Of a stretch of 45,896 bases of DNA, positions 3,451-37,702 are shown piece by piece. Every line of letters starts with the position of its first letter. Position 1 is the stretch's first letter. This DNA is from Leucoraja ocellata. Taxonomy: Eukaryota. Position numbers and translations under genes: made by a program. The notes beneath the pieces are model-generated. The model made no database searches. It was not told the origin of the DNA and saw only the letters and a list, made by a program, of their open reading frames with translations. Location of the stretch: the NCBI GenBank assembly GCA_036785375.1, contig JAWMAR010004588.1, positions 1 to 45,896 of the forward strand, written 5' to 3'.

Positions 3451-5297
3451 TAACTAATGTGTTCTAAGTAACCTGCGAACCCTGGTATACCTGCTTTCTG
3501 CACTGTGGGATCAATTAACCTGTTCCTTTCTATATAACTTGCTAGCCTCTGGGCCACTATGCTAAAGAAAATCTTGCCATCTACATTTAGGAGACAAACA
3601 GCCTAAACTGATTTAACTCTGGAGACTCTTTCTTCTAGGGAATGAACATTCCCCCTGCTCTATGCCAAACCCTTGGTATGACCTGCTTCTACCAAACTAT
3701 TGGACAGAGCCTCTGCGAGAATCTAAGCACATCATGTGCACTTTTATGTACCCGGTAAGGGACTCCATTTGGTCCCGGTGCAGAAGAAGCATTTCCACGC
3801 CATATTACTGCTTCCACTTCCTTCCACTTTTGTGGCAAAACATCTAACTATAACATCTGTCTCCTAAGGTGGTAACTCTGGAGGGAGACACGGGCCCGAT
3901 ACTGGGGCCCATGACGACTGAGGATTGGCGGGTAGCAAAAATAACCCCACTTTTTAAGAAGGGAGGGAGAGAGAAAACGGGGAATTACAGACCAGTTAGT
4001 CTAACATCGGTAGTGGGGAAACTGCTAGTCAGTTATTAAAGATAGGATAGCAGCACATTTGGAAAGTGGTGAAATCATTGGACAAAGTCAGCATGGATTT
4101 ACGAAAGGTAAATCATGTCTGACGAATCTTATAGAATTTTTCGAGGATGTAACTAGTAGCGTGGATAGGGGAGAACCAGTGCATGTGGTGTATCTGGACT
4201 TCCAGAACGCTTTCGACAAGGTCCCACATAAGAGATTAGTATACAAACTTAAAGTACACGGCATTGGGGGTTCAGTATTGATGTGGATAGAGAACTGGCT
4301 GGCAAACAGGAAGCAAAGAGTAGGAGTAAACGGGCCCTTTTCACAATGGCAGGCAGTGACTAGTGGGGTACCGCAAGGCTCAGTGCTGGGACCCCAGCTA
4401 TTTACAATATATATTAATGATCTGGATGAGAGAATTGAAGGCAATATCTCCAAGTTTGCGGATGACACTAAGCTGGGGGGCAGTGTTAGCTGTGAGGCGG
4501 ATGCTAGGAGACTGCAAGGTGACTTGGATAGGCTGGGTGAGTGGGCAAATGTTTGGCAGATGCAGTATAATGTGGATAAATGTGAGGTTATCCATTTTGG
4601 TGGCAAAAACAGGAAAGCAGACTATTATCTAAATGGTGGCCGACTAGGAAAAGGGGAGATGCAGCGAGACCTGGGTGTCATGGTACACCAATCATTGAAA
4701 ATAGGCATGCAGGTGCAGCAGTCAGTGAAGAAAGCGAATGGTATGTTAGCTTTCCTAGCAAAAGGATTTGAGTATAGGAGCAGGGAGGTTCTACTGCAGT
4801 TGTACAGGATCTTGGTGAGACCACACCTGGAGTATTGCGTACAGTTTTGGTCTCCAAATCTGAGGAAGGACATTATTGCCATAGAGGGAGTGCAGAGAAG
4901 GTTCACCAGACTGATTCCTGGGATGTCAGGACTGTCTTATGAAGAAAGACTGGATAGACTTGGTTTATACTCTCTAGAATTTAGGAGATTGAGAGGGGAT
5001 CTTATAGAAACTTACAAAATTCTTAAGGGGTTGGACAGGCTAGATGCAGGAAGATTGCTCCCAATGTTGGGGAAATCCAGGACAAGGGGCCACAGCTTAA
5101 GGATAAGGGGGAAATCCTTTAAAACCGAGATGAGAAGAACTTTTTTCACACAGAGTGTGGTGAGTCTCTGGAACTCTCTGCCGCGGAGGGTAGTCGAGGC
5201 CAGTTCATTGGCTATATTTAAGAGGGAGTTAGATGTGGCCCTTGTGGCTAAGGGGATCAGAGGGTATGGAGAGAAATCAGGTACAGGATACTGAGTT

Positions 5298-6428
5298 TAA
5301 GAGGGAACTGCAGATGCTGGAGAATCGAAGGTTACACAAAAAAGCTGGAGAAACTCAGCGGGTGCAGCAGCATCTATGGAGCGAAGGAAATAGGCAACGT
5401 TTCGCGCCGAAACCCTTCTTCAGACTGATCGGGGGCGGGGACAAGAAAGGGAAAAGGAGGAGTAGCCAGAAGGCTGGGGGATGGGAGGAGACAGCAGGGG
5501 GGCTGAGGAAGGGGAGGAGACAGCAAGGACTAACAAAATTGGGAGAATTCGATGTTCATGCCCCCGGGGTGCAGACTCCCCAAACGGAATATGAGGTGCT
5601 GTTCCTCCAATTTCCGGTGCTGCTCACTGTGGCCATGGAGGAGACCCAGGACAGAGAGGTCGGAGGCGGAGTGGGAGGGGGAGACCTCCAACGTGACCCC
5701 ACTACTCGCCACATCTTCCCATCTCCCCCCATATCTGCCTTCCGCAAAGACCGCTCCCTCCATAACTCCCTTGTCAATTCTTCCCTTCCCTCTCGGTCCA
5801 CCCCCTCCCCGGGCACTTTCCCTTGCAACCGCAAGAGATGCAACACTTGTCCCTTTACCTCCCCCCTCGACTCCGTTCAAGGACCCAAGCAATCGTTCCA
5901 GGTACGACAGAGGTTTACCTGCATCTCTTCCAACCTCATCTATTGCGTCCGCTGCTCTAGATGTCAGCAGATCTATATCGGTGAAACCAAGCGGAGGTTG
6001 GGCGATCGTTTCGCCGAACACCTCCGCTCGTTCCGCAATAACCAAGCTGACCTCCTGGTGGCTCAGCACTTCAACTCCCCCTCCCACTCCGTCTCCGACC
6101 TCTCTGTCCTGGGTCTCCTCCATGGCCACAGCGAGCAGCATCGGAAATTGGAGGAACAGCACCTCATATTCCGTTTGGGGAGTCTGCACCCCGGGGGCAT
6201 GAACATCGAATTCTCCCAATTTTGTTAGTCCTTGCTGTCTCCTCCCCTTCCTCAGCCCCCCTGCTGTCTCCTCCCATCCCCCAGCCTTCTGGCTACTCCT
6301 CCTTTTCCCTTTCTTGTCCCCGCCCCCGATCAGTCTGAAGAAGGGTTTCGGCCCGAAACGTTGCCTATTTCCTTCGCTCCATAGATGCTGCTGCACCTGC
6401 TGAGTTTCTCCAGCTTTTTTGTGTAACC
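5298..6428 (+). mobile_element. Truncated Penelope-like element (GIY-YIG endonuclease 3' end) with inverted pseudo-LTR
   Basis: CNRKRCNTC, NLIYCVRCSRCQQIYIGETKRRLGDRFAEH, GMNIEF; 354-bp inverted repeat 5330-5683 / 6075-6428; 15-bp TSD ACAGGATACTGAGTT at 5283-5297 and 6429-6443. Confidence 0.93.
6333..6365 (+). ncRNA. Minimal hammerhead-ribozyme motif in the Penelope pLTR
   Basis: GT-CTGAAGA-A-GGG-TTTCGG-CCC-GAAAC-GTT-GC matches the CUGAnGA...stem II...GAAA...GUH core with palindromic helix III; Penelope pLTRs are known to carry such motifs. Confidence 0.65.
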
Positions 6429-6656
6429 ACAGGATACTGAGTTGGATGATCAGCTATGATCATATTGAATGGCGGTGCAGGCTCGAAGGGCCGAATGGCC
6501 TACTCCTGCACCTAATTTCTATGTTTCTATGACAGGCCCACTCAGTATTCAAACAACGTAAGGTCCGAAAACACAAGGCCCATTCAGTGTTGGTGTTGCA
6601 TGATGCCACAGAAAGTAGGCCCAATCTCTATTCAATGTACTCTGGACCCAATCACT

Positions 6657-8288: not shown

Positions 8289-9207
8289 ATGACAGTCAGA
8301 GCAGTGTACTGTTCTGGATGTCAGATGTGGGAGGTCATGGTGTCGGATGGCCCTCCAGACGTCCACATCTGCACCAGGTGCAGCGAGATGGGGCTCCTAA
8401 GGGACTGTTTTAGGATCCTGGAGCAGCAGCTCGATGACCTCTGTCTGATCAGGGAGAGTGAGGAGGTCATAGAGGGGAGTTATAGGGAGGTGGTCACTCC
8501 AAAACCACGGGAGAGAGACATGTGGGTCACGCTAAGGAAGGGCAAGGGGCAGAGGCAGGGACGAGTGAGTACTCCAATGTCGGTCCACCTCGCAAATAAA
8601 TACTCCTGTTTGAGTACGGATGGGGGATGACAGCCTACCCGGGGGTAGTGACAGCGGACGGGCCTCCAGCACAGAGACCAGCCCTGTTGCTCCGAAAGGT
8701 AGGGGAAAAAAGAAGAGGGCAATAGTAATTGGGGACTCTATTGTTAGTGGGTCGGATAGGCGATTCTGTGGACGCAGTCGGGAGACCAGGATGGTGGTCT
8801 GCCTCCCTGGTGCCAAGGTCTCGGACGTGTCTCAACGCATCCAAGATATCCTGAAATCAGAGGGAGAGGAGCCTGTGGTAGTGGTACATATAGGTACCAA
8901 TGACATAAGTAAAAAAAGGGAAGAGGTCCTGAAGGGAGGATTTAGTGAGTTGGGAGGAGAGTTAAGGAAAAGGATCAAAAAGGTAACAATCTCAGGATTA
9001 CTGCCTGTGCCACGCGACAGTGAGAGTAGGAATGGAGCGAGGTGGAGGATAAATGCGTGGATGACAGATTGGTGCAGAGGGCAGGGATTCAAGTTCCTGG
9101 ATCATTGGGACTTCTTTTGGGGAAGGATGGATTGCACTTGAACCCGAGGGGGGACCAATATCCTGGCGGGGAAATTTGCAAAGGCTACTGGGGAGACTTT
9201 AAACTAG
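8289..9207 (+). pseudogene. CR1 ORF1 (zinc finger/leucine zipper plus SGNH esterase), frameshifted
   Basis: CSGCQMW...HICTRC, LEQQLDDL; IVIGDSIV, VCLPGA, VHIGTND esterase blocks; frameshifts near 8625 and 9130. Confidence 0.85.
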
Positions 9208-9339
9208 AATGGTTGGGGTGAGGGACTCAAATAGAGAAAGCTAGTAGACAGAATGGGAGGCAGGAAGCAGAAAAGGGAAGCACTCGGACACAAGAGAAGA
9301 AAGAAAAAAAAGGAAATAAACAGAGAGTAAGAGGCGGGG

Positions 9340-12139
9340 GGTTTCTTAAATGTGTATATTTTAATGCGAGGAGCATTGTAAGAAAGGTGGATGAGCTTAG
9401 ATTGACACCTGGAAGTATGATGTTGTGGCGATCAGTGAAACATGGTTGCAGGAGGGCTGTGATTGGAAACTAAATATTCCAGGATTCCGTTGCTTCAGGT
9501 GTGATAGAATTGGAGGGGCAAGAGGTGGAGGTGTTGCATTGCTAGTCAGGGAAGATATTACAGCAGTGCTTTGGCAGGATAGATTAGAGGGCTCGTCTAG
9601 GGAGGCTATTTGGGTGGAATTGAGAAGTGGGAAAGGTGTAGCAACACTTATAGGGGTGTATTATAGACTGCCAAATAGGGAACGAGAATTGGAAGAGCAA
9701 ATATGTAAGGAGATAGCAGATATTAGTAGTAAGCACAAGGTAGTGATTGTGGGAGATTTCAACTTTCCACACATAGACTGGGAAACACATTCTGTAAATG
9801 GGCTGGATGGGTTGGAGTTTGTAAAATGTGTGCAGGATAGTTTTTTTCAGCAATACATAGAGGTACCTACTAGAGGAGTGGCAGTGCTGGACCTCCTGTT
9901 AGGAAATGAGATGGGACAGGTGGCGGAGGTATGCGTTGGGGAGCACTTCGGGTCCAGTGATCACAATACCATTAGTTTCAATATAATTATGGAGAGGGTC
10001 AGAACTGGACCTAGGGTTGAGATTTTTGATTGGAGAAAGGCTAACTTTGATGAGATGCGAGATGATTTAAAAGGAGTGAACTGGGACATTTTGTTTTATG
10101 GGAAAGATGTAGAAGAGAAATGGAGGACATTTAAAGAGGAAATCTTAAGAGTACAGAATCTTTATGTTCCTGTTCGGTTGAAAGGAAACAGTAAAAATTG
10201 GAAAGAGCCCTGGTTTTCAAGGGAAATTGGACATCTTGTTCAGAAAAAGAGGGAGATCTACAATAATTATAGGCAGCATGAAGTAAATGAGGTGCTTGAG
10301 GAGTATAAGGAATGTAAAAAGAATCTTAAGAAAGAAATTAGAAAAGCTAAAAGATATGAGGTTGCTTTGGCAAGTAAGGTGAAAGTAAATCCAAAGGGTT
10401 TCTACATCTATATTAATAGCAAAAGGATAACGAGGGATAAAATTGGTCCATTGGAGAGACGGAGTGGACAGCTATCTGCAGAGCCAAAAGAGATGGGGGA
10501 GATATTGAACAATTTTTTTTCTTCGGTATTCACCAAGGAGTAGGATATTGAATTATGTGAGGTAAGGGAAACTAGTAGAGTAGCTATGGATACTATGAGG
10601 TTCAAAGTAAAAGAAGTACTGACACTTTTGAAAAATATAAAAGTGGATAAGTCTCCAGGTCCTGACAGGATATTCCCTAGGACATTGAGGGAAGTTAGTG
10701 TAGAAATAGCCGGGGCTATGACAGAAATATTTCAAATGTCATTAGAAACGGGAATAGTCCCTGAGGATTGGCGTACTGCGCATGTTGTTCCATTGTTTAA
10801 AAAGGGTTCTAAGAGTAAACCCGGCAATTATAGACCTGTTAGTTTGACTTCAGTGGTGGGCAAATTAATGGAAAAGATACTTAGAGATAATATATATAAG
10901 CATCTGGATAAACAGGGTCTGATTAGGAACAGTCAACATGGATTTGTGCCTGGAACATCATGTTTGACTGATCTTGAATTTTTTGAAGAGGTTATTAGGG
11001 AAATTGACGAGGGTAAAGCAGTGGATGTTGTCTATATGGACTTTAGTAAGGCCTTTGACAAGGTTCCTCATGGAAGGTTGGTTAAGAAGGTTCAACTGTT
11101 GGGTATAAATGCAGGAATAGCAAGATGGATTCAACAGTGGCTGAATGGGAGAAGCCAGAGGGTAATGGTGGATGGCTGTTTATCGGGTTGGAGGCAGGTG
11201 ACTAGTGGGGTGCCTCAGGGATCTGTGTTGGGTCCTTTGTTGTTTGTCATGTACATCAATGATCTGGATGAAGATGTGGTAAATTGGATTAGTAAGTATG
11301 CAGATGATACCAAGATAGGGGGTGTTGTGGATAATGAAGAGGATTTCCAAAGTCTACAGAGTGATTTAGGCCATTTGGAAAAATGGGCTGAAAGATGGCA
11401 GATGGAGTTTAATGCTGATAAATGTGAGGTGCTACACCTTGGCAGGACAAATCAAAATAGGACGTACATGGTAAATGGTAGGGAATTGAAGAATACAGTT
11501 GAACAGAGGGATCTGGGGATAACCGTGCATAGTTCCTTGAAGGTGGAATCTCATATAGATAGGGTGGTAAAGAAAGCTTTTGGTATGCTAGCCTTTATAA
11601 ATCAGAGCATTGAGTATAGAAGCTGGGATGTAATGTTAAAATTGTACAAGGCATTGGTGAGGCCAATTCTGGAGTATGGTGTACAATTTTGGTCGCCCAA
11701 TTATAGGAAGGATGTCAACAAAATAGAGAGAGTACAGAGGAGATTTACTAGAATGTTGCCTGGGTTTCAACAACTAAGTTACAGAGATAGGTTGAATAAG
11801 TTAGGTCTTTATTCTCTGGAGCGCAGAAGGTTAAGGGGGGACTTGATAGAGGTCTTTAAAATGATGAGAGGGATAGACAGAGTTGATGTGGACAAGCTTT
11901 TCCCTTTGAGAATAGGGAAGATTCAAACAAGAGGACATGACTTCAGAATTAAGGGACAGAAGTTTAGGGGTAACATGAGGGGGAACTTCTTTACTCAGAG
12001 AGTGGTAGCGGTGTGGAATGAGCTTCCAGTGGAAGTGGTGGAGGCAGGTTTGTTGGTACCATTTAAAAATAAATTGGATAGGTATATGGATGAGAAGGGA
12101 ATGGAGGGTTATGGTATGAGTGCAGGCAGGTGGGACTAA
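9340..12139 (+). pseudogene. CR1 ORF2 (APE endonuclease plus reverse transcriptase), frameshift near 9400 and TAG at 10541-10543
   Basis: YFNARSI, AISETWL, GGGVAL, VGDFN, SDHN endonuclease motifs; [36 protein letters not shown]; 9425-10543 and 10586-12139 share a frame. Confidence 0.92.
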
Positions 12140-14059: not shown

Positions 14060-14778
14060 GTGCGTTGTGGAAAATCTATTTCAATCAGCATTTATGAAGA
14101 AGAAAAATATAATATGAGCCAATATAGCTACTAACGTGTATTGTCACAGGAAATTTGCTTTGTAAAGTCCATTGGTATTAAAGTGAGGGACTAAATGCAT
14201 TTGTGTTGTATTAATGTGGGTTTTTTTGTGCAAATGTGCGCTAGCTAACCGTTCCTATTATTTTGCATTTCAAAGAATGTTTGATTGCTGGCCTGTTTGG
14301 GTAGTTGTCCATGCGCTATGGGGTAAACATGTCGTTAATTGCGTTTTATGTATGTTTCTATGCGACCCCATAAATGATTTTATGTCCGTGTGCTTGCTGA
14401 TGTTTTATGGTGAATGTGCTTTGTGTACATCTGGGGGAGACCTGGACATGGATGTGGCCTTGTCTAATGCTCGGGCCGGCGTGCTAGTCAATGTCTCGCC
14501 GCATCTGATATTTGCCTCTAAATTTGTGTTCTCACGAGCCACTCATAGCGGTTATCCCATCAATCACCTGCACATATTGTGATGACCGTTTAATAATTTT
14601 ACTTCGGAGTCACGTGAGTGACTACGTGAAGAACCCACCCAGCGCGCAGGCGCGGCATTACGTCAGCAGCGCAACAGCGGCAGCAGCTGGAGCCAGGCTC
14701 TCCAGCGGCAGGATAAAAGACAAGACCTCAGGTAAGTGAGTCTTTTGTGTTACAGAGTCGCTAACGGACGAAAAAGCT

Positions 14779-16005
14779 ATGGCTACCCGAAAGCGACCAA
14801 CAAGGAGGACTGCCTGCCCAACTCCACCCGAGGAGGGATCAATATCTGGGCGGCAGCCACCAGCGGCGGAGGAGCTGTTTGGACGCTCCCGCACACCCGA
14901 CGCCGAGCCGCTCCCTGTGCCGCCGATTACGACGCCCCGCACAGGGAGAAAAGCAACCCGGAAAACAGACCGGCCGGTGGCCTCCGACTCGTCGGCGGAA
15001 GGGGAACACTCTCCACCGGCGAAACGGGGAGACGGCCGCTTAAGCTGCATGAGGCAGCTGCTCGAGCAGATGCTTGAGGAGGAGATGCAGGCAAGGCATC
15101 TCCAAGGAGGACGGGCTATGGCCTCCTCCAAACCATCGCCACACCCTTCTGTTTCCTCCTTGTTTGAGGTCAGTAAGGGAGGCCAGGACTGGGCTGGCCT
15201 ATCACAAGGGCAGGCGGACGACACTGCAAGCATGCCAGGCGAGCTGGAGGAAGAAGAGCTACTGGGTGTAGTCAGCAGGTATGCGGCGCCCCCGAGGACC
15301 GGAATGATGCTACCACCAAGAATGGCGGCCAGTATAAACAGGCTCTCCAATAAGCCATTGCAGGAGAAAGTCATTCAAGAGGCCCTCGACACTTACACAG
15401 CGCCGGAAAACTGCGAGGCGCTGCGGGTAAAGACCGTAAACGGCCAAATATGGAACCAGCTGGGGCAGCATATCAGGACACAAGAGCTGAAGATGCAGCG
15501 TATCCTGAAGCTCCACACCGCAGCCATTACCGCCTTTGCTCGGTCCACCGGGAACGCAGAGCTCTCTACACCTCAGCAGGATGTGCTGGCCCTAATGTGT
15601 AACACACAGTATGAGCTCAACAGCCTAAGACGTGAAAACATCAGGCCTGCCCTCAACCCCAAATATGCGGGCCTCTGCAAAGCTCCGGCGCCAGAAAAGG
15701 AGGCGCTACTATTCGGGGCCGACTTGGCAAAAAGGCTCAAGGAACTGGAAGAGGCGGCCAAACCTGTAGGCCTCATGAGGGCAGCGCCAGGACCGAGCAG
15801 GGTGAAGACACCCAGTTGGCAGCACGCCTCGGCATCCACCAGCAGGTACCGAGCTGGTGAAAGCCTGGTGACCGCCTCCCACTACCCCCAGAGCTCTTTT
15901 TTAGAGCGGGGCCCAGGGCGGAGCCGTGGGAAGATACGCCGCCCCACCACAGCACCAACAAGGACACCCTCGGGCCAAACCCATCGCAAACGCTCCCAGA
16001 AATAA
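14779..16005 (+). CDS. DIRS1 ORF1, gag-like protein (408 aa)
   Basis: Intact first ORF of the element; low-complexity N- and C-termini flank a core (PENCEALRVKTVN...RRENIRPALNPKY...LLFGADL) resembling DIRS ORF1 proteins. Confidence 0.8.
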   Translation: MATRKRPTRRTACPTPPEEGSISGRQPPAAEELFGRSRTPDAEPLPVPPITTPRTGRKATRKTDRPVASDSSAEGEHSPPAKRGDGRLSCMRQLLEQMLEEEMQARHLQGGRAMASSKPSPHPSVSSLFEVSKGGQDWAGLSQGQADDTASMPGELEEEELLGVVSRYAAPPRTGMMLPPRMAASINRLSNKPLQEKVIQEALDTYTAPENCEALRVKTVNGQIWNQLGQHIRTQELKMQRILKLHTAAITAFARSTGNAELSTPQQDVLALMCNTQYELNSLRRENIRPALNPKYAGLCKAPAPEKEALLFGADLAKRLKELEEAAKPVGLMRAAPGPSRVKTPSWQHASASTSRYRAGESLVTASHYPQSSFLERGPGRSRGKIRRPTTAPTRTPSGQTHRKRSQK

Positions 16006-16007
16006 AC

Positions 16008-17942
16008 ATGGAGGTAGGTGGGTCTGGTTCCTGTCGGCATACGCAGACAAAGGGTGTTGTATTAACAGGAGGGCGTTTAAGGTTCTTCAAACATGTTTGG
16101 TGCTCCTTTACTAGCAACAAGTTTATACTCAACAGTATCAGTGGATACAAATTTGAATTTAAACCAGGCATAGAACCGCCAGTTCAGCACATACCCCAAA
16201 GGGTATTCCTTCCCACAGAATCAGAAAAGGTAGAAGGACAAGCTGAACTAGATAGGCTCGTGTCCAAGGGCATCATAGAGAGGGCCAGACACGAGCCATT
16301 GTAATTTGTATCGAATATATTTATCAAAACTAAAAAAGATGGTGGATGTCGTATTATCATTGATTTGACATCACTAAATCAGTCTGTTGAGTATCAACAT
16401 TTCAAAATGGAGACATTTGTTACTGCCAGACAGCTGATCTCCAAGGGATACTTCATGGCAAGCATAGATATTAAGGATGCTTACTATTTAGTACCCATTC
16501 ATAAGGATCATTTCAGATATCTGAAATTTATCTGGATGGGGCAACTATGGCAGTATAGAGCATTACCCAATGGTTTAACGACAGCTCCCAGATTATTTAC
16601 TAAAATTCTCAAAGTGGCCATGAAAAAATTAAGAGAACAGAAACATTTAGTCATGGCCTATCTGGACGATGTTCTCATATTGGGAAGAACAAGGGAACTA
16701 GCTGTCGCAGGAGTTTTAGCTACTAAACAACTCCTTGAAACATTGGGATTTGTTCTACACCCAGATAAATCAATATTGAAGCCAACAACTAACATGGATT
16801 ACCTAGGCTTCACTATTGACACTATCCGTATGAATGTCACTCTGCCAAGAGACAAAAAGGCTACATTAACAGAAGCCTGTAACAACTTAATCGCAAAAAC
16901 GCAACCAAGGATCCGGCATGTAGCCAGAGTCATTGGTAGTATAGTAGCAGCATTCCCAGCTGCACAATATGGGCCCTTGCATTATCAAAATTTACAAAGA
17001 GCAAGGACACATGCACTACGTCTAAGTAGGGGGCATTATGACCGACCCATGGATTTACCCGCTGAAGCCAAATCAGAACTTCAGTGGTGGGTGGATAACA
17101 TTTGGCACAGTTACAGTCCTATCGCCGTCACCAATCCTAACATAGCCATTACAACGGATGCCAGTGCTTTAGGCTGGGGAGCTACTAACTCTATATCCAG
17201 CACAGGTGGCAGATGGACTAATTCAGAGGCATCGCTACTACAATCGCTTGGCATAAATTATTTGGAGATGCTGGCCGCATTTTATGGGCTAAAAGCATAT
17301 GCATCCGATATGCGGCATGTGCATGTCAGGTTAATGATTGATAACACGACGGCGGTGTCTTACATCCAGCACATGGGTGGCATAAAATCAGTATCATGCG
17401 ACAAATTGACTACTATAATCTGGCAATGGTGTGTCGAGAGACATATTTGGCTATCAGCTGCCTATTTACCAGGCAAGCTAAACACAGTGGCAGACACCAG
17501 GTCACGAAAATTCAATGACAACATCGAATGGATGTTAGACCCAAAAATATTTGCTAGAATTGTTAAGCAATACGGTACGCCAGATATAGATTTGTTTGCG
17601 TCTAGATTAAATCACCAGCTACCCATGTATGTGGCTTGGGAACCAGACCCAGAGGCAGCAGCGGTAGATGCCTTCACGCTGGATTGGGGAAATTTCTTTT
17701 TCTATGCTTTCCCTCCCTTCTGCCTCATCAGCCGGGTACTCCAGAAAATACAAGCAGACTCAGCTTCAGGTATTCTGGTCGTACCCGACTGGCCTACCCA
17801 ACCATGGTTCCCAGTCTTCCACGACATGGTGGTAGAGTCACCTATGGGTTTTCACAGCCACCCACAACTATTGACTCACCCGGTATCCGGCATAAGCCAT
17901 CCATGCCATCAAAAATTGAAACTCCTGGCTTCTAGGTTCTGA
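16008..17942 (+). pseudogene. DIRS1 ORF2: reverse transcriptase, RNase H and DNA adenine methyltransferase-like domain, one in-frame TAA at 16302-16304
   Basis: ORFs 16008-16304 and 16365-17942 share a frame and read through as FVSNIFIKTKKDGGCRIIIDL; RT IDIKDAY, LPNGLTTAP, YLDD; RNase H TTDASALGWG, INYLE, DNTTA, NTVAD; MT-like DLFAS...YAFPPF. Confidence 0.92.
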
Positions 17943-17989
17943 CCAGGCCTTACCAGGGATTGGGGTTATCAGAACGAACAATCACCACC

Positions 17990-18912
17990 ATGTCGGCGTC
18001 CCTGCGAGTCTCTACCAAGAAGCAGTACTTGACCTACATCAGGAAATGGGAGCAGTACTGCTTGGATGCAGGGACATCATACAAGACGGCCTCGATCACG
18101 GACGTGCTGGAATTCCTGGGCCACTTGCACCATGACCAAAAGATGAGCTACAGTGCCATCAATGCAGCACGGAGCGCCCTGTCCGCTTACCTTATGCCTA
18201 CAGGACATCACAGCATTGGATCCCACCCTCTGGTTATAAAACTCCTCAAAGGGATTTATAATACTAAACCCCCTACACCCAGATACACCCATGTATGGGA
18301 TGTAAGTGTAGTTTTGTCACACCTTAGAGGTTGGCCTCCGGTGGGATCCTTGAGTCTGGAGCAGTCCACTATCAAGACCCTCATGCTCATGGCGCTCGTC
18401 TCTGCACAAAGGGTTCAGTCGCTGCATCAACTAAGACTGGACAACATGATAACCACCCAGATTCCATTACATTTACCATGCCGGGGTTGGTTAAACAAAG
18501 CAGGCCAGGTATATCCAACTCTCCGTTAATCTTCCGGGCCTACCCTCCAGAACCTAGGCTGTGTGTAGTGACCCATCTATACGACTACGTAGACACAACC
18601 CAAACACTTAGAGGGAGTGAAAAAGCCTTATGGGTCAGCCACAAAAAGCCTTTTGGACGGGTTACCAGCCAGACAATATTTAGGTGGTTGAAACAGGTCC
18701 TAAAAACCGCGGGGATTAACACGGATGTTTTTAAATCCCATTCAACCAGGGCAGCGTCCACGTCAGCGGCGGAACGGATGCAGGTTCCCATAGACCACAT
18801 CCTTAGTACAGCGGGATGGTCAAGGGAATCAACGTTCCAAAAATTCTACCACAAACCGCTGATGGAGAAGGACGTGTTTGCGGAGAAAATTTTAGAATCT
18901 GCAAACTTATAA
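17990..18912 (+). pseudogene. DIRS1 ORF3 tyrosine recombinase, frameshifted near 18455
   Basis: N-half (RVSTKKQY...NAARSALS...LVSAQR) in one frame; C-half (LVKQSRPG...HSTR...TAGW...FQKFY) in another; full R-K-HxxR-W-Y catalytic set present. Confidence 0.92.
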
Positions 18913-19074
18913 TTTAAAGCCCAGGGGAGCTATTTTTTGTTATTGTTAAATAAACAATTTTGTTTCAAAAAACTAACAAATTCGTTGGTCTTTAGATACC
19001 ACTTCCTCCCTCGATGAACTTTCGGCAGTGAGTGATATAGCTGTTACACGGTTTGAAATCACAGACCTTTGAAG

Positions 19075-19187
19075 TCTTCACGTAGTCACTCACGTGACTC
19101 CGAAGTAAAATAGTGAGATTAAACGAGTACTTACCAGTACGAAGTTTGATCTGTATTTTATGAGGAGTTACGATGAGGGATTACGTG
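19075..19187. repeat. DIRS internal complementary region (ICR)
   Basis: 19075-19111 is the reverse complement of 14596-14632; 19111-19187 is the reverse complement of 19333-19409 (77 nt, no mismatch seen). Confidence 0.95.
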
Positions 19188-20638
19188 CCCTCCGCTCCCA
19201 CCCTCGTTGTATAGATCAAACTCGAGCTGATGTCTCATTAATCTTTACTATCTTTACTTCAATATTGTGTCTACCTGTGATTCCACACCGCTGCTTGGAA
19301 GTATGCCGCGCCTGCGCACTGGGTGGGTTCTTCACGTAATCCCTCATCGTAACTCCTCATAAAATACAGATCAAACTTCGTACTGGTAAGTACTCGTTTA
19401 ATCTCACTACTAAACGCCACAGCATTCTGGACCCAGAGTTAAATGGCCCACTTCTTCATGGGGACAATCTATAATTGTGACACTTTATTCTTGTTCTGTA
19501 GGTTCCACTTAGTTGTGCTTAGAATTAGGTTGATTTAATTGAATTGATGATATAGGCTGTTTCTGCTCTACTCTCCTGAACACATTCAGCATCATGTGCA
19601 TCAAAGGAGCCATTACGTTCTCATATCATTAATATATAGATGTTCCTCTCTCATTCNNNNNNNNNNNNNNNNNNNNNNNNNNNNNNNNNNNNNNNNNNNN
19701 NNNNNNNNNNNNNNNNNNNNNNNNNNNNNNNNNNNNNNNNNNNNNNNNNNNNNNNNNNNNNNNNNNNNNNNNNNNNNNNNNNNNNNNNNNNNNNNNNNNN
19801 NNNNNNNNNNNNNNNNNNNNNNNNNNNNNNNNNNNNNNNNNNNNNNNNNNNNNNNNNNNNNNNNNNNNNNNNNNNNNNNNNNNNNNNNNNNNNNNNNNNN
19901 NNNNNNNNNNNNNNNNNNNNNNNNNNNNNNNNNNNNNNNNNNNNNNNNNNNNNNNNNNNNNNNNNNNNNNNNNNNNNNNNNNNNNNNNNNNNNNNNNNNN
20001 NNNNNNNNNNNNNNNNNNNNNNNNNNNNNNNNNNNNNNNNNNNNNNNNNNNNGTGGGTGAGAGTGGGTGTGTGTTTGCTTTGTTAAATCCTCGTGCAATA
20101 GTGTCCATATATATTGAGTACATGGCACAATGTAAATGTTTCGTGTGATTTTACAGATGGGCGTTCATATAAAACAGTGAATGTGCATTTCAATCTGTCT
20201 GTGGAATTAGAAATGTGCGCAGAAATATGCGTGACAGACGCACGGCAAAATGCACGTCTCCTCGTGCGGGCGGAGGAAGGTGAGTAGCTACCTATATCTC
20301 GGAGCGGCAGGCTCTACAAAGCGCAACGTCTGAGATCCTGCCTCAGGTTTGAATGGATTGGAAACAAGAGAAGGAGGGAAACGGAGATCCAAAGACATGG
20401 ACCCATATCTGGCCAGCAAGAGCAATAATGTTGAGGTGTGGCCGCGATGTGTGCAGGGGTGCAGCTGTGACTTATCTCCTAAACCCCGATGTTACTGTGC
20501 AGTCTGAATCCGGTTTCCATCAATTATCGCCAAGATTTTCAAGTATCAACGTTACTATATAGTCATCGTTTTGACAGAATGTTTTATATAATTAATTGGG
20601 TGGTCATGTGATCAGCTCAAGATTGGAGGTTAAAGATA

Positions 20639-20681: not shown

Positions 20682-21073
20682 TCATTGACAGGAATTGACA
20701 GTGTCCATCAATACAAGGGAAACATTGACAAAACTGGGTTTACCGCTGGACTTATTGACCGTTCTGACGATGGTCTTCATGGGGAGTGCTTCGTGCCCCA
20801 CTAGACAGGAGAAGGAGGCTCCGCTAGCCCACTCCTCTGCCCCAATGGATAACAGGCTGTAGGTGAAGAAGGTATCATTGCCGTTCTCCGCCACCACCTC
20901 TGTGTTCTTGTACTTGCTCTCATCCACCCGCTTGTCATCAAGTGTCCACGTGACAAAGACCCTGCGAGGGGAGAATCCTCTCACAAAGCAGGTGAGGGTG
21001 ATAGTCTTGTGCGCGGAGATTTCTTCTGTCGGCGGCAGAAGGACTGAGACGGACGGTGGCAGCAGATGTTGAC
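20682..21073 (-). CDS. IGHM: IgM heavy chain CH4 exon plus secretory tailpiece
   Basis: CCGTAG| acceptor; [18 protein letters not shown]...[18 protein letters not shown]...[11 protein letters not shown]...[24 protein letters not shown]-stop; tailpiece has the N-x-S sequon and penultimate Cys; internal donor AGCG|GTAAAC at 20744/20743 for the membrane form. Confidence 0.97.
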
Positions 21074-21585
21074 CTACGGAACAATTCAAATGGCGTTTAT
21101 TATACAAGACGGTTAAAGCGATTAAAAGCTAAATTATCCGTACGTCAGTAAACTGCCAACAGACAGTATTAACGGCATTGCATTCCCCTTTAGTGCCTTG
21201 TCTCTTTGTTCAGACATAAACACCTGAATGTGCGTCTCTCCTGTGCACGGCAGAGGATTTGTATAAATCACTTCACACACTCACAACACGAGATCAAGCC
21301 ATTCGCCCTCTCTGATCCGTGTTATTTCTGATGACCATGGTCGTCTCCTGCACCTTTTGTCATTTATTACTAATTTATTTCTACCTTGGTTCATCTGTCT
21401 CATTTAATTCCCAAGAGCAACTGAATGCGACTTTATTAAACCATGGCAGGAGTAGTCAGTGGATGCCAGCGGAGAATGTTGAGCATACAAAGTGATGCTT
21501 TTTGAAGTGCGTTTTCAAAATTGATGCAAATGATGGAATTCTAAAATGAATTCAGGGATCGCAGGAAACAATGAGCACGTTATAC

Positions 21586-22112
21586 GAGCCCAATTATAGG
21601 AAGGATGTCAACAAAATAGAGAGAGTACAGAGGGGATTTACTAGAATGTTGCCTGGGTTTCAGCAACTAAGTTACAGAGAAAGGTTGAACAAGTTAGGTC
21701 TTTATTCTTTGGTGCGCAGAAGGTTAAGGGGGGACTTGATAGAGGTCTTTAAAATGATGAGAGGGATAGACAGAGTTGACGTGAATAAGCTTTTCCCATT
21801 GAGAGTAGGGACGATTCAAACAAGGGGACATGACTTGAGAATTAAGGGACAACATTTTAGGGGTAACATAAGGGGGAACTTCTTTACTCAGAGAGTGGTA
21901 GCGGTGTGGAATGAGCTTCCGGTGGAAGTGGTGGAGGCAGGTTTGATTTTATCATTTAAAAATAAATTGGATAGGTATGTGGATGGGAAAGGAATGGAGG
22001 GTTATGGTCTGAGTACAGGTAGATGGGACTAGGGGAGAATAAGTCTTCGGCACGGACTTGTAGGGCTGAGATGGCCTGTTTCCGTATTGTGATTGTTATA
22101 TGGTTATATGGT
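21586..22112 (+). mobile_element. CR1 3' fragment in the CH3-CH4 intron
   Basis: PNYRKDVNKIERVQR...MEGYG; same family as the 7564-12230 element; TATATGGT tail. Confidence 0.9.
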
Positions 22113-22872
22113 GTGTACGCAAAAAGACAGTAAGATGCTTTTGTATGATGTGGGATATTACAGAGATTATGTTGGAGGGAGTTGAGAGGGGAAAGGGAAT
22201 TTTGAAATGGGCATTTTGACCTGGACACTACAAGCAAAATGGAAAACAAAACATTCCTAGGCTCTTTGACTGCGGCCTTCCTCGGCGTTATATCTAATCC
22301 CTCCGAATGTCTGTGTAGATGCAGACCATTGGAATCAATATTAAATGATCTACATTAAGGTGACATCTTTCCGATATACGGCATTTGAAGGTTATTTTGT
22401 TTTAAATTTCGAGTAATTCATTTCATGTGCCTAGCTCCGTAACGGACATTTCTGCTGCAAGTGAGAGTATCTGCGATTTACTCCCGCCATCACCACATGG
22501 TAATTTGGTAGACAAACCCATATTCCTGCAAGTAACAACACTGTGCGCTATTTAACAAACGCTGCAATGCTCTGAATACCCATATTGGACCATAGACCAG
22601 AGTCAACGTGGCCGCACGCTGACTCTCGCTGCAAATTATCATCGATGTTTCCAGTAACCTGTCCGCACCTCATATTCATGCAAAGTGATCTCGTATTCTC
22701 TCTTTCCCAGCTCTGACAAAGGACTCAGTGAAGTCTCAGCACGATTTCATTGTGTATAGATATTGTTTCGCCGATGGAGTGATCTCAATCATTAATTTCA
22801 GCTTTATCTCAGAAGAAATGTGGACCAGTCACCTCTGGCCCACAGAACCTCTCTGCAGCTACACCGGCTCAC

Positions 22873-23172
22873 CTTTCTTCCAGTTGATTCGTCCAGTTTT
22901 TGGAGTCGGCATATCATAATGGCTCACCACGCATTCGAAATAATCCCCACTCAGCCAGTCACGAGTTGAAATGTTGACTTTGCTCTCTACGATATCTGCA
23001 TGTCCTGTGGGCTGGATCTCTGAATCCAAATGTTCCTTTTTGTGGTTCCAAGATACTGTGATATCATAAGGTGCATCGGATACCTGGCAGGTTAATGTTA
23101 CGGTCATCTCCATTAACTCTTGTTCAACAGGTGGAGGAAGGATTGTAATCTTCAGTTCGCAGGAACTATCAA
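22873..23172 (-). CDS. IGHM: IgM heavy chain CH3 exon
   Basis: CCACAG| acceptor; VDSSCELKITILPPPVEQELMEMTVTLTCQVSDAPYDITVSW...DWLSGDYFECVVSHYDMPTP...NWKK; donor G|GTGAGC; 300 nt. Confidence 0.96.
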
Positions 23173-23429
23173 CTGTGGCACAACAATTAATGTGAACATA
23201 AGCATTTGCAGGAGTAACCAGGATCGAAGGTTTACACCAATCATCTGCCCCCAAAACTTGAATGTGTACAAGACCCCTTCTGAGTAGTGATTCTATGACC
23301 ATGGGTCCTAAATCGTCATGAGCTGACTTTTGTCTCTGTGCAGAGAACGACACAATAAATGAAATGGGAGATGGCATCATGGGCTATACCATGATATGCA
23401 CTCAATGCTGGAGTACTGTAACTCACACC

Positions 23430-24455
23430 ACTTCATCCAAGGAACCCAACAGTCCTTTCAGATGAGGCAGAGGTTCACTTGCACCTCCACCAACCACTGT
23501 ATCCGCTGTTGTAGATGTGGGTTCCTGTACATCGGTGAATCAAAGCGCAGACTGTGGCGGTCGTATCGTTGAACACCTTCGCTCTGCCCGCCTTGCCCTA
23601 GGCCAGTGATTCCCATCCTGGGGCCAAATGGCATGGCAAATTTCAGGGGGGCCACAGAAAAATGTTGGCATTTAGGGGGCCACAGGTTCAATGAAGGGGG
23701 CCACAGAGCTACCACCCTTTTGCCTCCTAAATTTCAGTTCTAATAAATTTAAATCTATGTAGTTGAAATATTTTTGATGTTTGAGGAATAGAATAAAAGA
23801 GAATATATGTGCAATTAATAGACACTGATATTTTTATGGAAGGTATTATAATATTGAAGTACTTTTTTTCCGCTAATAATGTCAGGGGCCACAGAAAAAT
23901 TAAAAGATCCCAAGGGGGCCATGAGCTAAAAAAGGGTGGGAACCACTGCCCTAGGCGATCACCAGCTTGCCAAACACATTAAAACCCCGCTCCATTCCCA
24001 CACTGTTCTTTCTGTCCTGGGCTTACTCCACTGTGAGAGTGGGAAACGCAAATTGGAGGAACAACACTCATATTTCGCTTCGGCAACCTAAACCTCAGAG
24101 GTATCAATATTGACTTTTCTAATTTCAAGTAACCTTTGCATTCCATCTCTCTCCAGCCGCCTCCCACCCTCGTCATCAGACTAGTTTCACTCCGGTCCTG
24201 TTTCGTTTCACTCTGTATCTACTCGTTATCACCATTTCTAGAGCAACAACGGACCAATGTGGCCTCGACCTTTCCTTGTTCATCTTTGCTGGCTTTGATT
24301 TGTTCTTTTCATACCTTTCATTCATGTGTTTGTACATTCTCATACCTCTAGTTTCCCTCTCCTCTCATTCCAAGTCGGAAGAAGAGCCTCGACCTGAATC
24401 GTCACCTATTTCTTTTCTCTGCAGATGCCTAACCTGCTGTTACTCCGGAATTATG
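23430..24455 (+). mobile_element. Degenerate Penelope-like fragment (GIY-YIG plus pLTR), split by a MITE
   Basis: QQSFQMRQRFTCTS...CIRCCRCGFLYIGESKRRL resembles 5880-6010; pLTR with decayed hammerhead motif near 24374-24405. Confidence 0.75.
23604..23948. mobile_element. hAT (Charlie-like) MITE, 345 bp
   Basis: TIRs CAGTGATTCCCATCCT / AGGGTGGGAACCACTG; exact 8-bp TSD CCCTAGGC at 23596-23603 and 23949-23956. Confidence 0.9.
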
Positions 24456-24457
24456 TT

Positions 24458-25072
24458 TGAGTATAGAAGCTGGGATGTAATGTTAAAATTGTACAAGGCA
24501 TTTGTGAGACCAAATCTGGAGTATGGTGTACAATTTTGGTCACCCAATAATAGGAAGGATGTCAACAAAATAGAGAGAGTACAGAGGAGATTTACTAGAA
24601 TGTTGCCTGGGTTTCAACAACTAAGTTACAGAGAAAGGTTGAATAAGTTAGGTCTTTATTCTCTGGAGCGCAGAAAGTTAAGGGGGGACTTGATAGAGGT
24701 CTTTAAAATGATGAGAGGGATAGACAGAGTTGATGTGGACAAGCTTTTCCCTTTGAGAATAGGGAAGATTCAAACAAGAGGACATGACTTCAGAATTAAG
24801 GGACAGAAGTTTAGGGGTAACATGAGGGGGAACTTCTTTACTCAGAGAGTGGTAGCGGTGTGGAATGAGCTTCCAGTGGAAGTGGTGGAGGCAGGTTCGT
24901 TGGTATCATTTATAAATAAATTGGATAGGCATATGGATGAGAAGGGAATGGAGGGTTATGGTATGAGTGCAGGCAGGTGGGACTAAGGGGAAAAAAAGTT
25001 GTTCGGCACGGACTTGTAGGGCCGAGATGGCCTGTTTCCGTGCTGTAATTGTTATATGGTTATATGTTATAT
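24458..25072 (+). mobile_element. CR1 3' fragment in the CH2-CH3 intron
   Basis: Near-identical by eye to 11611-12220; tail TTATATGGTTATATGTT. Confidence 0.92.
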
Positions 25073-25209
25073 GTTTCTACTTGCGGTGTAAACCAGCATC
25101 TGTACTTCCTTCCTACACATAGACTTTCACAATGTCAGTCAAGTACTGCCACCGTGAGCACTAATGTTTACACTAATACCCCGAGACATACCACGGATGT
25201 ATTTCTTAC

Positions 25210-25527
25210 CTCGAGGTATACTGATGTTTTGGCTTTGCAAATTGTTTTCATGCCTGACTTGGCAGGTATAGACGGAACCTTTGAACCACTCTGCAGCTGG
25301 GAATGTCAACTGGCTGGTCGCCGAGAAGTTATCGTTACCGTTCACCTGGAAGGCGGGAGAGGTGACGATGCCAGAATCCAATGACTCGCCATTCTTCAGC
25401 CAGGTCACAGTAAATTTTGCTGGAGTGAAATCGTTGACCAAACACACGGCGATCGCTATTCTGCTGAGCTTGATTTCATCAAGGGCACTTATGGTAATGG
25501 AGACGTTAGGATGATGTACCACGCGGT
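25210..25527 (-). CDS. IGHM: IgM heavy chain CH2 exon
   Basis: TTTCAG| acceptor; DRVVHHPNVSITI...AVCLVNDFTPAKFTVTWLKNG...EWFKGSVYTCQVRH...SIPR; donor G|GTAAGA; 318 nt. Confidence 0.96.
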
Positions 25528-25659
25528 CTGAAAGAAAATAAACTTCATTGGAATTGCTCATAAACTATCGTTGATTAATAATGACACCCAATATTTTGAC
25601 CAAAAAAAACAAACAAAAAAAACAAAATTTCACTTTTTCTGATTAAAAGTAGCCTGGAC

Positions 25660-35239: not shown

Positions 35240-36525
35240 CTAACCTGGCCCTCAACACCAGCAAAACTAAGGAATTGGTTGTGGACTTTAGAAGTAGTAG
35301 GATGGGACCCACAGCCCCGTTTATATCAACGGGTCAATGGTTGAAAGGGTCAAGAGCTTCAAATTCCTGGGCATGCACATCTCTGAAGATCTTTCCTGGG
35401 CCGAGAACACTGATGCAATTATTAAGAAAGCACATCAGCGCCTCTACTTCCTGAGAAGATTACGGAGAGTCGGTTTGTCAAGGAGGGCTCTCTCTAACTT
35501 TTACAGGTGCACAGTAGAGAGCATGCTGACTGATTGCATCGTGGCTTGGTTCGACAACTTGAGCACCCTGGAGAGGAAAAGACTACAAAAAGTAGTAAAC
35601 GCTGCCCAGTCCATCATCGGCTCTGACCTTCCTTCCATCGAGGGGATTTATCGCAGTCGCTGCCTCAAAAAGGCTGGCAGTATCATTAAAGACCCACACC
35701 ATCCTGGCCACACACTCATCTCCCTGCTACCTTCAGGTAGAAGGTACAGGAGCCTGAAGACGGATCATCAATCAGGCAAGCAAAATAAGTGGCAAAACTC
35801 AAAATCAATGATCAGTACTCCACACCCAGGCAGTTAAAAGGAAAGCCAATCTCATTACACAGGATCCCACCCACCCTCTGCACAAGTCTTTACAACTTCT
35901 GCCATCAGGCCGCTGATATAAAGTCCCCCTATCCAAGAAAAACATCCACAAAAACTCATTCATACCCATTGCCATAAACAGCTTAAATAAACAATGAACA
36001 ATGGACAAATTAACCCTGACGCATTGTCACTTTACACGTATCCACAACTTTCATCTTGTCTATTTTTACAGTTTTTAATCTTTATATTTGCTTTTAAGAT
36101 CGATACACACTGTGTGTGCTCGCAGAAATCTGTGTTGTATGACTGCTTATCAGTACATTGTCCTGTCTGTATGTTGAGCCACGTCAAAGAAGATTTTCTG
36201 TTACGACAGACAATAAAGTTTTCTGAATCTGAATCTGAATCTGAATCTGAACAACCAGGTTCAGGAATAGCTACTTCCCCACAGCCATCAGGCTATTAAA
36301 CCTGGCTCGGACAAAACTCTGAACAATAATAGCCCATTATCTGTTATTTGCACTTCATCAGTTTATTTATTCATGTGTGTATATATTTATATTACGGTAT
36401 ATGGACACACTGATCTGTTCTGTATTCATGCCTACTATGTTCTGTTGTACTGAAGCAAAGCAAGAATTTCATTGTCCTATCAGGGACACATGACAATAAA
36501 CTCTCTTGAATCTGGAATCTTGAGT
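35240..36525 (+). mobile_element. Rex1/L2-like LINE fragment with a second LINE 3' end (35762-36250, (TCTGAA)n tail) nested inside
   Basis: Outer frame ...LPSGRRYRSLKT breaks at 35761 and resumes TTRFRNSYFPTAIRLL after 36250; the inner piece encodes DPTHPLHKSLQLLPSGR. Confidence 0.8.
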
Positions 36526-36644
36526 TATCTGAGGAGATAGATAGAAACAGTAGTTACCCGATTTGTGAGGAAAACACAAGGAGTATTGAAAATTGTAATG
36601 TGCATATGGGCAATTATAGTTTCCTGTACTCCAACATAGCATTC

Positions 36645-37702
36645 TTCTTAAACTTAAAGCACACGGTATTGGGGGATCAGCATTGATGTGGATAGACACT
36701 GGCTGGCAGACAGGAAGCAAAGAGTAGGAGTAAACGGATCCTTTTCACAATGGTAGGCAGTGACTAGTGGGGTACCGCAAGGCTCAGTGCTGGGACCTCA
36801 GCTATTTACAATATATATTAAAGATTTGGACGAGGGAATTGAATGCAATCTCCAAGTTTGCGGATGACACGAAGCTGGGGGGCAGCGTGAGCCGCGCAGC
36901 TTCCACAGTTTAAGGATAAGGGGGAAATTGTTATTTAAATGGTGGCCGATTAGGAAAAGGGGAGATGCAACGAGACCTGGGTGTCATGGTACACCAGTCA
37001 TTGAAAGTGGGCATGCAGGTGCAGCAGGCAGTGAAGAAAGCGAATGGTATGTTAGCATTCATAACAAAAGGATTTGAGTATAGGGGCAGGGAGGTTCTAC
37101 TGCAGTTGTACAGGGTCTTGGTGAGACCACACCTGGAGTATTGTGTTCAGTTTTTGTCTCCTAATCTGAGGAAAGACATTCTTGCCATAGAGGGAGTACA
37201 GAGAAGGTTCATCAGACTGATTCCTGGGATGTCAGGACTTTCATATGAAGAAAGACTGGATAGACTCGGCTTGTACTCGCTAGAATTTAGAAGATTGAAG
37301 AGGGATCTTATAGAAACTTACAAAATTCTTAAGGGGTTGGACAGGCTAGATGCAGGTAGATTGTTCCCGATGTTGGGGAAGTCCAGAACAAGGGGTCACA
37401 GTTTAAGGATAAGGGGGAAATCTTTTAGGACCGAGATGAGGAAAACATTTTTCACACAGAGAGTGGTGAATCTCTGGAACTCTGCCACAGAAGGTAGCTG
37501 AGGCCAGTTCATTGGCTATATTTGAGAGGGAGTTAGATGTGGCCCTTGTGGCTAAAGGGATCAGGGGGTATGGAGAGAAGGCAGGTACAGGATACTGAGT
37601 TGGATGATCAGCCATGATCATATTGAATGGCGGTGCAGGCTCGAAGGGCCGAATGGCCTACTCCTGCACCTATTTTCTATGTTCTATGTTTCTATGTTTC
37701 TA
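36645..37702 (+). mobile_element. CR1 RT fragment with internal deletion
   Basis: [21 protein letters not shown]...; (TTTCTATG)n tail. Confidence 0.88.

Follow-up and report, generated by a model that had tools for sequence, protein, structure and literature searches.

The three genes of a DIRS1 retrotransposon from Leucoraja ocellata may be expressed by a combination of recoding and splicing. Unspliced RNA would be translated into Gag; a −1 ribosomal frameshift at positions 15897-15903 of the same RNA would yield a Gag-Pol fusion; and a splice from 16013/16014 (donor D2) to 17935/17936 (acceptor A2) would remove the RT-RNase H region in frame and leave an mRNA for the tyrosine recombinase (YR). 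We regard this scheme, taken as a whole, as close to evenly balanced. What is established directly is which motifs are present, in which phase and how well conserved; the frameshift, the D2-A2 splice and the recombinase start are inferred. That start may be ATG 16008, to which ribosomes would gain access by restarting after the gag stop, 2-20 nt upstream, or through a minor splice from the leader donor D1; alternatively, the same frameshift would give a Gag-linker-recombinase fusion.

The element and its copies

The window is a contig of 45,896 nt (JAWMAR010004588.1, assembly GCA_036785375.1), and all features lie on its forward strand. The element in it is a DIRS1 retrotransposon, a broken copy of a young family. 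Its left inverted terminal repeat (ITR; 14596-14658) pairs with part of the internal complementary region (ICR) at 19075-19111 (37 nt, 100%) and with the right ITR at 19303-19346 (93%). The ICR as a whole (19075-19187) is complementary to both element ends, and the right repeat with its extension (19303-19409) includes a donor-like CTG/GTAAGT at 19385/19386. The ends are of the NTT type and lack a target-site duplication; judged by eye, 26 independent insertions begin with ATT and have unrelated flanks. A 36-mer of the left ITR is matched 14,786 times in this genome; these ITR/ICR matches, when halved, correspond to about 7,400 DIRS1 copies in this genome alone. No related locus turned up in the viral contig and genome contig collections searched.

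The order of genes is gag, RT-RNase H-MT (pol) and YR, with a short pol-YR overlap. The gag-like ORF1 (14779-16005, 408 aa) opens, as initially annotated, at ATG 14779; it has no Pfam match and is named by position. Pol (16008-17942) matches RVT_1 with an E value of 4.8e-16. Its RNase H and methyltransferase regions have no Pfam match at E 0.01 and are presumed from position and motifs. The YR frame (17936-18912) includes 18 codons upstream of ATG 17990; its Phage_integrase and SAM-like matches were obtained on a natural copy, L007. A Pfam search found no protease, integrase or env in the element. The broken state of this copy, whose pol is interrupted by a stop codon at 16302 and whose YR is one base short, had been overlooked in the initial annotation. 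The 30 nearest copies are 97-100% identical, and 89% of the columns are invariant in 26 independent ones, which makes them too weak a test of conservation. Splice-site ranks given below come from an approximate vertebrate weight matrix and serve for ranking only.

The junction of gag and pol

Gag-Pol is quite probably made by −1 frameshifting at U UUU UUA. The heptamer (T TTT TTA in the DNA, 15897-15903) lies in gag phase, as X XXY YYZ in the zero frame, and the pol frame, −1 relative to gag, is open from 15861 to 16008, across the gag/pol overlap and linker (15904-16007) into the second gene. The same site had initially been read as a strong splice acceptor (acceptor 1), and the ORFs as tandem rather than frameshift-linked. 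Its AG (15903-15904) is indeed present, 103 nt upstream of ATG 16008, but ranks merely 21 of 347 AG sites. The claim that no ATG intervenes between acceptor and pol ATG holds for this copy, whereas 12 of 15 representative copies carry an out-of-frame ATG there, in six of them in a strong context. Because of these ATGs, the ORFs of gag and pol are likely frameshift-linked, and a slippery heptamer accounts better for the site than does a splice from the leader to 15905.

The family at large points the same way. The heptamer is present in 60 of the 73 copies that have the pol start, and 52 of these 60 keep its phase, over six lengths (103, 106, 109, 112, 124 and 130 nt); 50 of the 52 are free of a pol-frame stop. 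Gag stop and pol ATG are separated by 2, 8, 17 or 20 nt, each value being equal to 2 mod 3. Opportunities for a pol-frame stop are used in 1 of 85 cases within the overlap vs 47 of 283 upstream (12 related copies, which are not independent). The T run is the pure T6-AG in 53/58 sites, though C would preserve both protein and acceptor. In one family the heptamer is missing from all 10 copies that have the pol start, but an ORF of more than 200 codons is missing from all 14 of its members too. A −1 frameshift signal would be expected to have a stimulatory hairpin or pseudoknot 5-9 nt downstream; modelling of local hairpins gave no stable one after the heptamer in 15 copies of this genome (z −0.7 to +1.8). 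Two further candidates were discarded: the calicivirus-type restart motif, UGGGA, is confined to the subfamily of the window, most others reading TGGAA, and the signal for long-range pairing of the heptamer with D2 was not distinguished from G-richness.

Splicing might do the work alone, in the manner of foamy viruses. The leader donor joined to 15905 would let ATG 16008 start Pol, and an additional D2-A2 splice, leaving an internal exon of 109 nt, would let the same ATG start the recombinase. The size of such an exon (102-136 nt) is ordinary; no other donor is as strong or as conserved as D1, and the acceptor next to it (A0, see below) lies too near to pair with it; the AG that ends the T run is invariant even where the encoded amino acid changes; and ATG 16008 has its purine at −3 and its G at +4 in 15/15 representatives, the ATG itself being kept in 14. 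Yet this reading does not explain why the pol frame is open and phase-locked upstream of the ATG, and the foamy-type arrangement, with the pol AUG as the first AUG after the acceptor, is true of this copy and false in the 12 representatives just mentioned. The AG moreover sits in a small covarying stem, the RNA runs contain no supporting reads, and a distant relative (L186) has neither an acceptor matching acceptor 1 nor a pol-frame ATG at the pol start. We consider splicing alone unlikely; it can coexist with the frameshift.

Splice sites and the recombinase frame

The leader holds a functional-looking 5' splice site that is conserved far beyond chance. D1, CAG/GTAAGT at 14729-14737 with its junction at 14731/14732, had been noted initially and ranks first of 212 GT sites. 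The conservation check then proposed came out in its favour: D1 is kept in 15 of 16 diverged leader groups, and a comparable donor score is reached by 13 of 320 control windows. The absence of ATG from the leader is correct for 14596-14778 of this copy, but most other leader groups have an ATG before the donor. The best-ranked acceptor (1/347), a polypyrimidine-AG directly upstream of gag (A0, 14740-14755), had been overlooked. Its AG (14754-14755) lies 24 nt downstream of D1, and 19-63 nt downstream in other leader groups; exact loss of the D1-A0 interval is seen in L064 and in the L251/L253 lineage. D1 would most likely be a promoter-proximal U1 site or a regulated donor curbed by the too-close A0, which is the weakest step of our scheme.

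The second donor, D2 (GAG/GTAGGT, phase 0, rank 3/212), had also gone unnoticed. It directly follows the ATG in its conserved Kozak context (16008-16019). Pol codons 2-6, GAG GTA GGT GGG TCT, are invariant in 12 lineages, vs merely 2 of 82 four-fold columns elsewhere. Between the ITR and the RT core, strictly invariant runs of at least 7 nt in these lineages are confined to D1 (AGGTAAG), the heptamer and D2. The invariance extends beyond the donor 9-mer, and the D2 region may therefore serve another RNA function.

At the other end of pol, A2 (17920-17935) ranks 4 of 347 AG sites. Its AG (17934-17935), part of a pol codon for Arg and with a score of only 4.9-5.9 in three of the groups, is present as initially described, 54 nt upstream of ATG 17990 (context ACCACCATG), and in this copy no ATG lies between them. 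That an acceptor-like AG precedes the recombinase gained support: the base that follows it is where the YR frame opens, and the length from there to the STKKQY motif is fixed. The pN/pS ratio is 0.59 in the YR frame vs 0.89 and 1.21 in the other frames. D2 would join A2 in frame, so that the RT-RNase H region would be excised whole. On these grounds we lean, if slightly, towards a recombinase made by splicing out pol from D2 to A2.

Things look different for the splice first proposed for YR, from the leader directly to 17936, with ATG 17990 as the start. Combined with frameshifting for Pol, it would express the recombinase like a retroviral env, from the first AUG downstream of A2. D1 needs a partner, A2 ranks high, and in this subfamily the context of ATG 17990 is good. 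But this codon is ATG in only 5 of 10 representatives; the first in-frame Met after A2 is codon 9, 12, 16, 18 or 19, depending on lineage, and some lineages have none within 25 codons. The 18 codons upstream of ATG 17990 look translated, as if selected as protein, and neither reads nor retrocopies of this kind were found. We hold direct splicing from D1 to A2 to be decidedly unlikely.

The RNA data at hand do not favour any splice. They comprise seven raw runs of a related species, of which 1-32% each was read, mostly at 85-95% identity, and they represent mostly passive transcripts, pooled from thousands of copies of which most are dead, in unspecified tissues. The junction test that the initial annotation had suggested found no predicted junction in any of them. 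Over the whole element, four runs (1-25% of each read) contain no joint at a predicted junction, and no loose ends at 15905 or 16013 are among those listed for 15860-16070 in four runs, at a depth of about 26-87 at D2. With such a source, the negative outcome lowers the splicing claim without refuting it. The lone skip joint listed, 14717>15175 (ends AG..GT, three reads), is a deletion and not an intron, and depth steps in the coverage were set aside, being explained by subfamily divergence. Genome searches, two of them without any match, gave no retrocopy spliced D2-A2, D1-A1 or D1-A2: there is none among the best 100 of 158 matches, and further searches gave 0/1, 0/28, 0/14 and 0/1. All 30 loci examined among the 158 are unspliced variants or have a small deletion. 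Pol-less or gag-less retrocopies were likewise not found in the genome; copies in which ITR and ICR stand about 3.3 kb apart resemble gag-less ones but have 5' or internal deletions with ends away from splice sites, and L151, L240 and L241 are ordinary deletions.

Of course, productive splicing might not occur at all. The donor-like motifs would then bind U1 or act through RNA structure, in anti-polyadenylation, packaging or long-range pairing; a frameshift or stop-restart would give Pol, and other recoding or an internal start the recombinase. Every RNA test is negative, and downstream of D1 there often come the reverse complement of D1 and an acceptor that lies too close to be usable. In pairing with the segment after the heptamer, the D2 region is best or nearly so (rank 0-5 of 205 pol windows), with a z of only −0.2 to −2.5 vs shuffles. 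A review, as quoted in PMC13003380, proposes a frameshift for the YR of Ngaro. Here, however, no in-phase slippery heptamer lies between A2 and the pol stop, most lineages have a YR-frame stop at the AG of A2, and D2 and A2 join in frame in two different phases. A wholly unspliced mode thus appears quite unlikely.

The two phases come from comparison with L186, whose pol is 42% identical. It has the same −1 geometry, with A AAA AAC in gag phase and a downstream hairpin (z −2.8; −0.4 to −2.8 in five loci of its family), and a pol-frame Met is absent until 3621. Its top donor (1 of 243) falls on codons homologous to D2, and with the best of 13 AGs around the end of pol the ATG after gag would be in frame with YR, an outcome with a chance of about one in three. 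The D2-A2 coupling is in phase 2 in L186 vs phase 0 here (87 vs 84 nt). A broken relative of L186, L192, has no AG at the matching place, and L197 shows none. Tentatively, and with less assurance than for the present element, animal DIRS1 may share one plan: a Gag-Pol −1 frameshift and an RT-RNase H gene that acts as a retained intron, removal of which joins the post-gag AUG or a Gag-linker to YR. Donor and acceptor phases would co-evolve between distant hosts, and the leader micro-intron of 19-63 nt would act as a splicing brake.

Comparison with known systems

The element shares ITRs, ICR, gene order, the short pol-YR overlap and copies that begin with ATT with DIRS1-like retrotransposons such as DIRS-1 of Dictyostelium and the vertebrate families (PMC3266345 and PMC9210276, in part). 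The passages searched in these two papers neither state how pol or YR is expressed nor mention splicing; frameshifting is unmentioned in those of PMC9210276, and those of PMC3266345 use the term solely for broken copies. The passages searched in PMC7192593 mention splicing solely for its reporter intron. The literature searched contains no report of a frameshift/splice plan for DIRS1, nor a statement on how the second and third genes are translated, for which exact, testable coordinates are now given; earlier mention of frameshifting or spliced ESTs may exist in Goodwin and Poulter 2001/2004 and in Poulter and Goodwin 2005. If the plan is true, DIRS1 uses a retroviral scheme in which the recombinase replaces env, and pol and YR are truncated in annotations that let them begin at the first ATG.

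Orthoretroviruses make Gag-Pol by −1 frameshifting at heptamers such as U UUU UUA (HIV-1) and A AAA AAC (MMTV), and also use a spliced subgenomic RNA. The same heptamers in the same phase occur in the window and in L186, a major donor lies upstream of gag, and the last gene is predicted to be expressed from spliced RNA. In contrast to orthoretroviruses, the element has no detected protease, integrase or env, its predicted splice begins at the start of pol and not in the leader, and local folding shows no clear 3' stimulator in this genome.

Foamy viruses use a spliced pol mRNA with an acceptor inside gag and a Pol AUG of its own (PMC6669543, in part), which is the model of the initial annotation; the DIRS1 family differs by out-of-frame AUGs after the would-be acceptor in 12 of 15 representatives and in that this acceptor doubles as a slippery site. 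Finally, the LAP2alpha exons of TMPO and ZNF451 derive from DIRS1 gag, and the authors infer, in the part of PMC4495291 consulted, that the gag which colonised the host had a splice acceptor. LAP2alpha is a case of host exonisation and not of element expression, but A0, directly before gag, is a candidate for such an acceptor and offers a route for exonisation of this kind.

The element, its copies and its surroundings

The window harbours one DIRS1-like element (14596-19409), an ordinary member of its family. It is bounded by a left inverted terminal repeat (ITR, 14596-14658) and a right repeat (19303-19409), contains an internal complementary region (ICR, 19075-19187), and encodes gag (14779-16005), pol (16008-17942) and a recombinase frame ending at 18912. 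Pfam matches confirm the reverse transcriptase (RT) and the tyrosine recombinase (YR); the same search yielded no match for gag, RNase H or methyltransferase. The copy is dead: pol is interrupted by a stop at 16302, and YR lacks one base. Loci L001-L005 share its flanks and thus represent one insertion in a duplicated region. A further 25 copies, nearly full-length and 97-99% identical, sit in unrelated flanking sequence, and the genome contains 14,786 occurrences of a 36-nt ITR word. Sixty stretches chosen by place and four family searches gave 94 element records, some of them the same copy twice, in 21 leader groups; pol identity to the window family falls as low as 57%. In L062, L065, L066 and L070, 5' deletions begin at or within about 20 nt of the left ITR end (14657-14658 in L062 and L070), which suggests a template jump during reverse transcription.

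The element lies antisense to and downstream of minus-strand exons (20685-21128, 22859-23420, 25139-25600) with a secretory tail, which we take from their motifs to be immunoglobulin heavy-chain-like constant exons. The insertion recurs on five contigs; the cluster was therefore duplicated after it. Judged by their motifs, numerous LINE-like RT fragments and a single GIY-YIG-like one lie at 4281-6228, 8289-12139, 21571-22032, 24324-24986, 35337-37501 and 41085-41603.

The leader donor

The expression signals of the element are real and conserved. All coordinates of the initial annotation proved correct on re-check. Splice sites were scored with an approximate weight matrix that serves for ranking only; by it the leader donor D1 (14731/14732) is first of 212. 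The nearest copies say little about its conservation, 89% of their columns being invariant, but D1 is strikingly well kept in diverged leader groups: 15 have a donor scoring at least 11 (14 at nt 126-172, the L064 family being the fifteenth), and one with a partly deleted leader reaches 9.1, a count that leaves out four groups lacking the leader and one mis-oriented record. A score of 10 is attained by just 13 of 320 control windows. Between ITR and RT core, the sole strictly invariant runs of at least 7 nt in a 12-lineage alignment are D1, a T run (15898-15904) and 16009-16020.

Wherever a group has D1, a pyrimidine-AG (A0, 14740-14755) follows 19-63 nt further on, immediately ahead of gag, and the donor's reverse complement often lies between the two. 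This spacing is shorter than vertebrate introns usually allow. The exact GT-AG segment from D1 to A0 was lost in two independent lineages, L064 (24 nt, 1 of 12 aligned) and L251/L253 (37 nt; substitutions shared, flanks different). Since 4-5 nt of microhomology accompany both losses, slippage accounts for them no less well than splicing. D1 may be a U1 site or a regulated donor restrained by A0.

The second-ranked donor, CTG/GTAAGT, sits at the right terminus (19383-19391) and could pair with A0 on circles or tandem copies. Its complement in the ICR (19129-19137) resembles the U1 5' end, and a similar word is present at 6534 in the distant metagenome element L186. Another distant locus, L191, has a strong acceptor (900-925) right at the gag ATG.

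The gag-pol boundary

The initial annotation had D1 spliced to 15905 for pol, via a strong acceptor (15903-15904) with no ATG before the pol start. This acceptor ranks only 21st, and an out-of-frame ATG follows it in 12 of 15 representatives, six times in strong context. Nor did the D1-acceptor 1 joint appear among the matches listed from RNA or genomic patterns. As the main route to pol, this splice is unlikely. The acceptor is better read as a putative slippery site, and a Gag-Pol protein is probably made by frameshift: 15897-15903 reads T TTT TTA in gag phase, which we take to be the form of the HIV-1 heptamer, and the pol frame, -1 relative to gag, is open from 15861.

The heptamer keeps its phase in 52 of the 60 copies that have it, across six linker lengths, and 50 of these 52 lack a pol-frame stop. 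The gag stop lies 2, 8, 17 or 20 nt from the pol ATG, and gag imposes no constraint there. A third-position T creating a pol-frame stop is used at 1 of 85 places in the overlap versus 47 of 283 upstream, where p = 3e-5 is overstated because the 12 copies are related. Several lineages share a pol-frame peptide ending LP-x-V/I-T/N before the ATG. The run consists of T alone at 53 of 58 sites; C would preserve protein and acceptor alike, and gag uses TTA about as often as CTA, and TCC more than TCT. Counting against a slippery site, no stable hairpin was found 3' of the heptamer in this genome. Covariation was found in one structure only, a 5-bp stem that surrounds the T run (pair 4-16: GC 8, CG 3, AU 2, UG 1, unpaired 1), with a shuffle control that related sequences can beat even without structure.

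The site is absent from 13 of 73 copies with a pol start, three by deletion and 10 in one family without any ORF above 200 codons. This family (L061, L078, L079, L098, L172-L184) keeps D1, A0 and the sites D2 and A2 at the pol start and end; it has probably spread in trans. At 15856-15866, CTGGTGAAAGC encodes Gly-Glu-Ser and contains a pol-frame stop ahead of the heptamer; by eye, its letters are the same in most lineages.

Of 24 metagenome loci found, 12 were inspected. L186, a complete element with 42% pol identity, agrees with the slippery-site reading: its pol frame, again -1, opens at 3456 with the first Met at 3621, and at 3471 A AAA AAC stands in gag phase with a hairpin (z -2.8) behind it. 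A heptamer also persists in four relatives (z -0.4 to -2.3). T TTT TTC occurs close to the boundary in three broken loci from other families, where the phase is unreliable (z -5.8, -2.3, -0.7); the boundary of L191 has no heptamer.

A predicted recombinase message

The first pol codons, ATG GAG/GTAGGT (16008-16019), contain the third-ranked donor, D2 (16013/16014). Across 12 lineages, codons 2-6 do not vary; of the 82 four-fold columns, only 2 others are likewise invariant. The acceptor A2 (17934-17935) ranks 4th of 347. The YR frame opens one base past it, in most lineages just behind a stop formed by the AG, and the STKKQY motif follows at a fixed 75 nt. A start at ATG 17990, as first proposed, fits poorly: the recombinase likely begins upstream and would need an upstream exon, because pN/pS ahead of this ATG is 0.59 in the YR frame versus 0.89 and 1.21 in the others, position 2 there uses four different Leu codons, and the first YR-frame Met ranges from codon 9 to none. 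D2 and A2 are both in phase 0; excision of 16014-17935 therefore joins them in frame. The predicted YR mRNA would thus carry the post-gag ATG exon fused to the YR frame. We consider this splice somewhat favoured, and its combination with a frameshifted Gag-Pol a nearly even matter, leaning slightly against.

In L186 the top donor (1 of 243) coincides with the homologous Glu-Val codons; 17 nt upstream of it, in another frame, lies an ATG just past the gag stop. The best-scoring of 13 AGs near its pol end restores the YR frame (anchor 87 nt versus 84 in the window), a single independent case, with roughly a 1/3 probability of arising by chance. Such an AG was not seen in its broken relatives L192 and L197. 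The distant loci L202 (2257) and L203 (2690) have their top-scoring donor at the gag/pol boundary.

Raw RNA reads of a related species were searched in seven runs (1-32% of each read), four over the whole element and four over 15860-16070. Neither the D1-A1 and D1-A2 junctions of the initial annotation nor D2-A2 joints, nor loose ends at 15905 or 16013, were among the matches listed, the smallest of which had 7, 7, 11 and 3 reads. The reads come from both strands and many subfamilies and are therefore probably mostly passive transcripts of dead copies. Pattern searches, one comprising 100 listed of 158 matches, revealed no genomic copies spliced D1-A1, D1-A2 or D2-A2, although, according to a passage of PMC7192593, the RT of DIRS-1 is able to work in trans.

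We found no description of DIRS1 splicing or gag-pol frameshifting in the full-text literature, specifically in passages of PMC7192593, PMC4495291, PMC13003380, PMC9210276, PMC3266345, PMC6681497, PMC3783388, PMC6669543, PMC5633606, PMC4157794 and PMC9940879; older papers by Goodwin and Poulter, and Poulter and Butler 2015, may hold more. The latter, as quoted in PMC13003380, proposed that Ngaro YR is made by frameshift. The predicted expression scheme suggested here for DIRS1 is specific, testable and apparently undescribed; its parts are the known retroviral ones.
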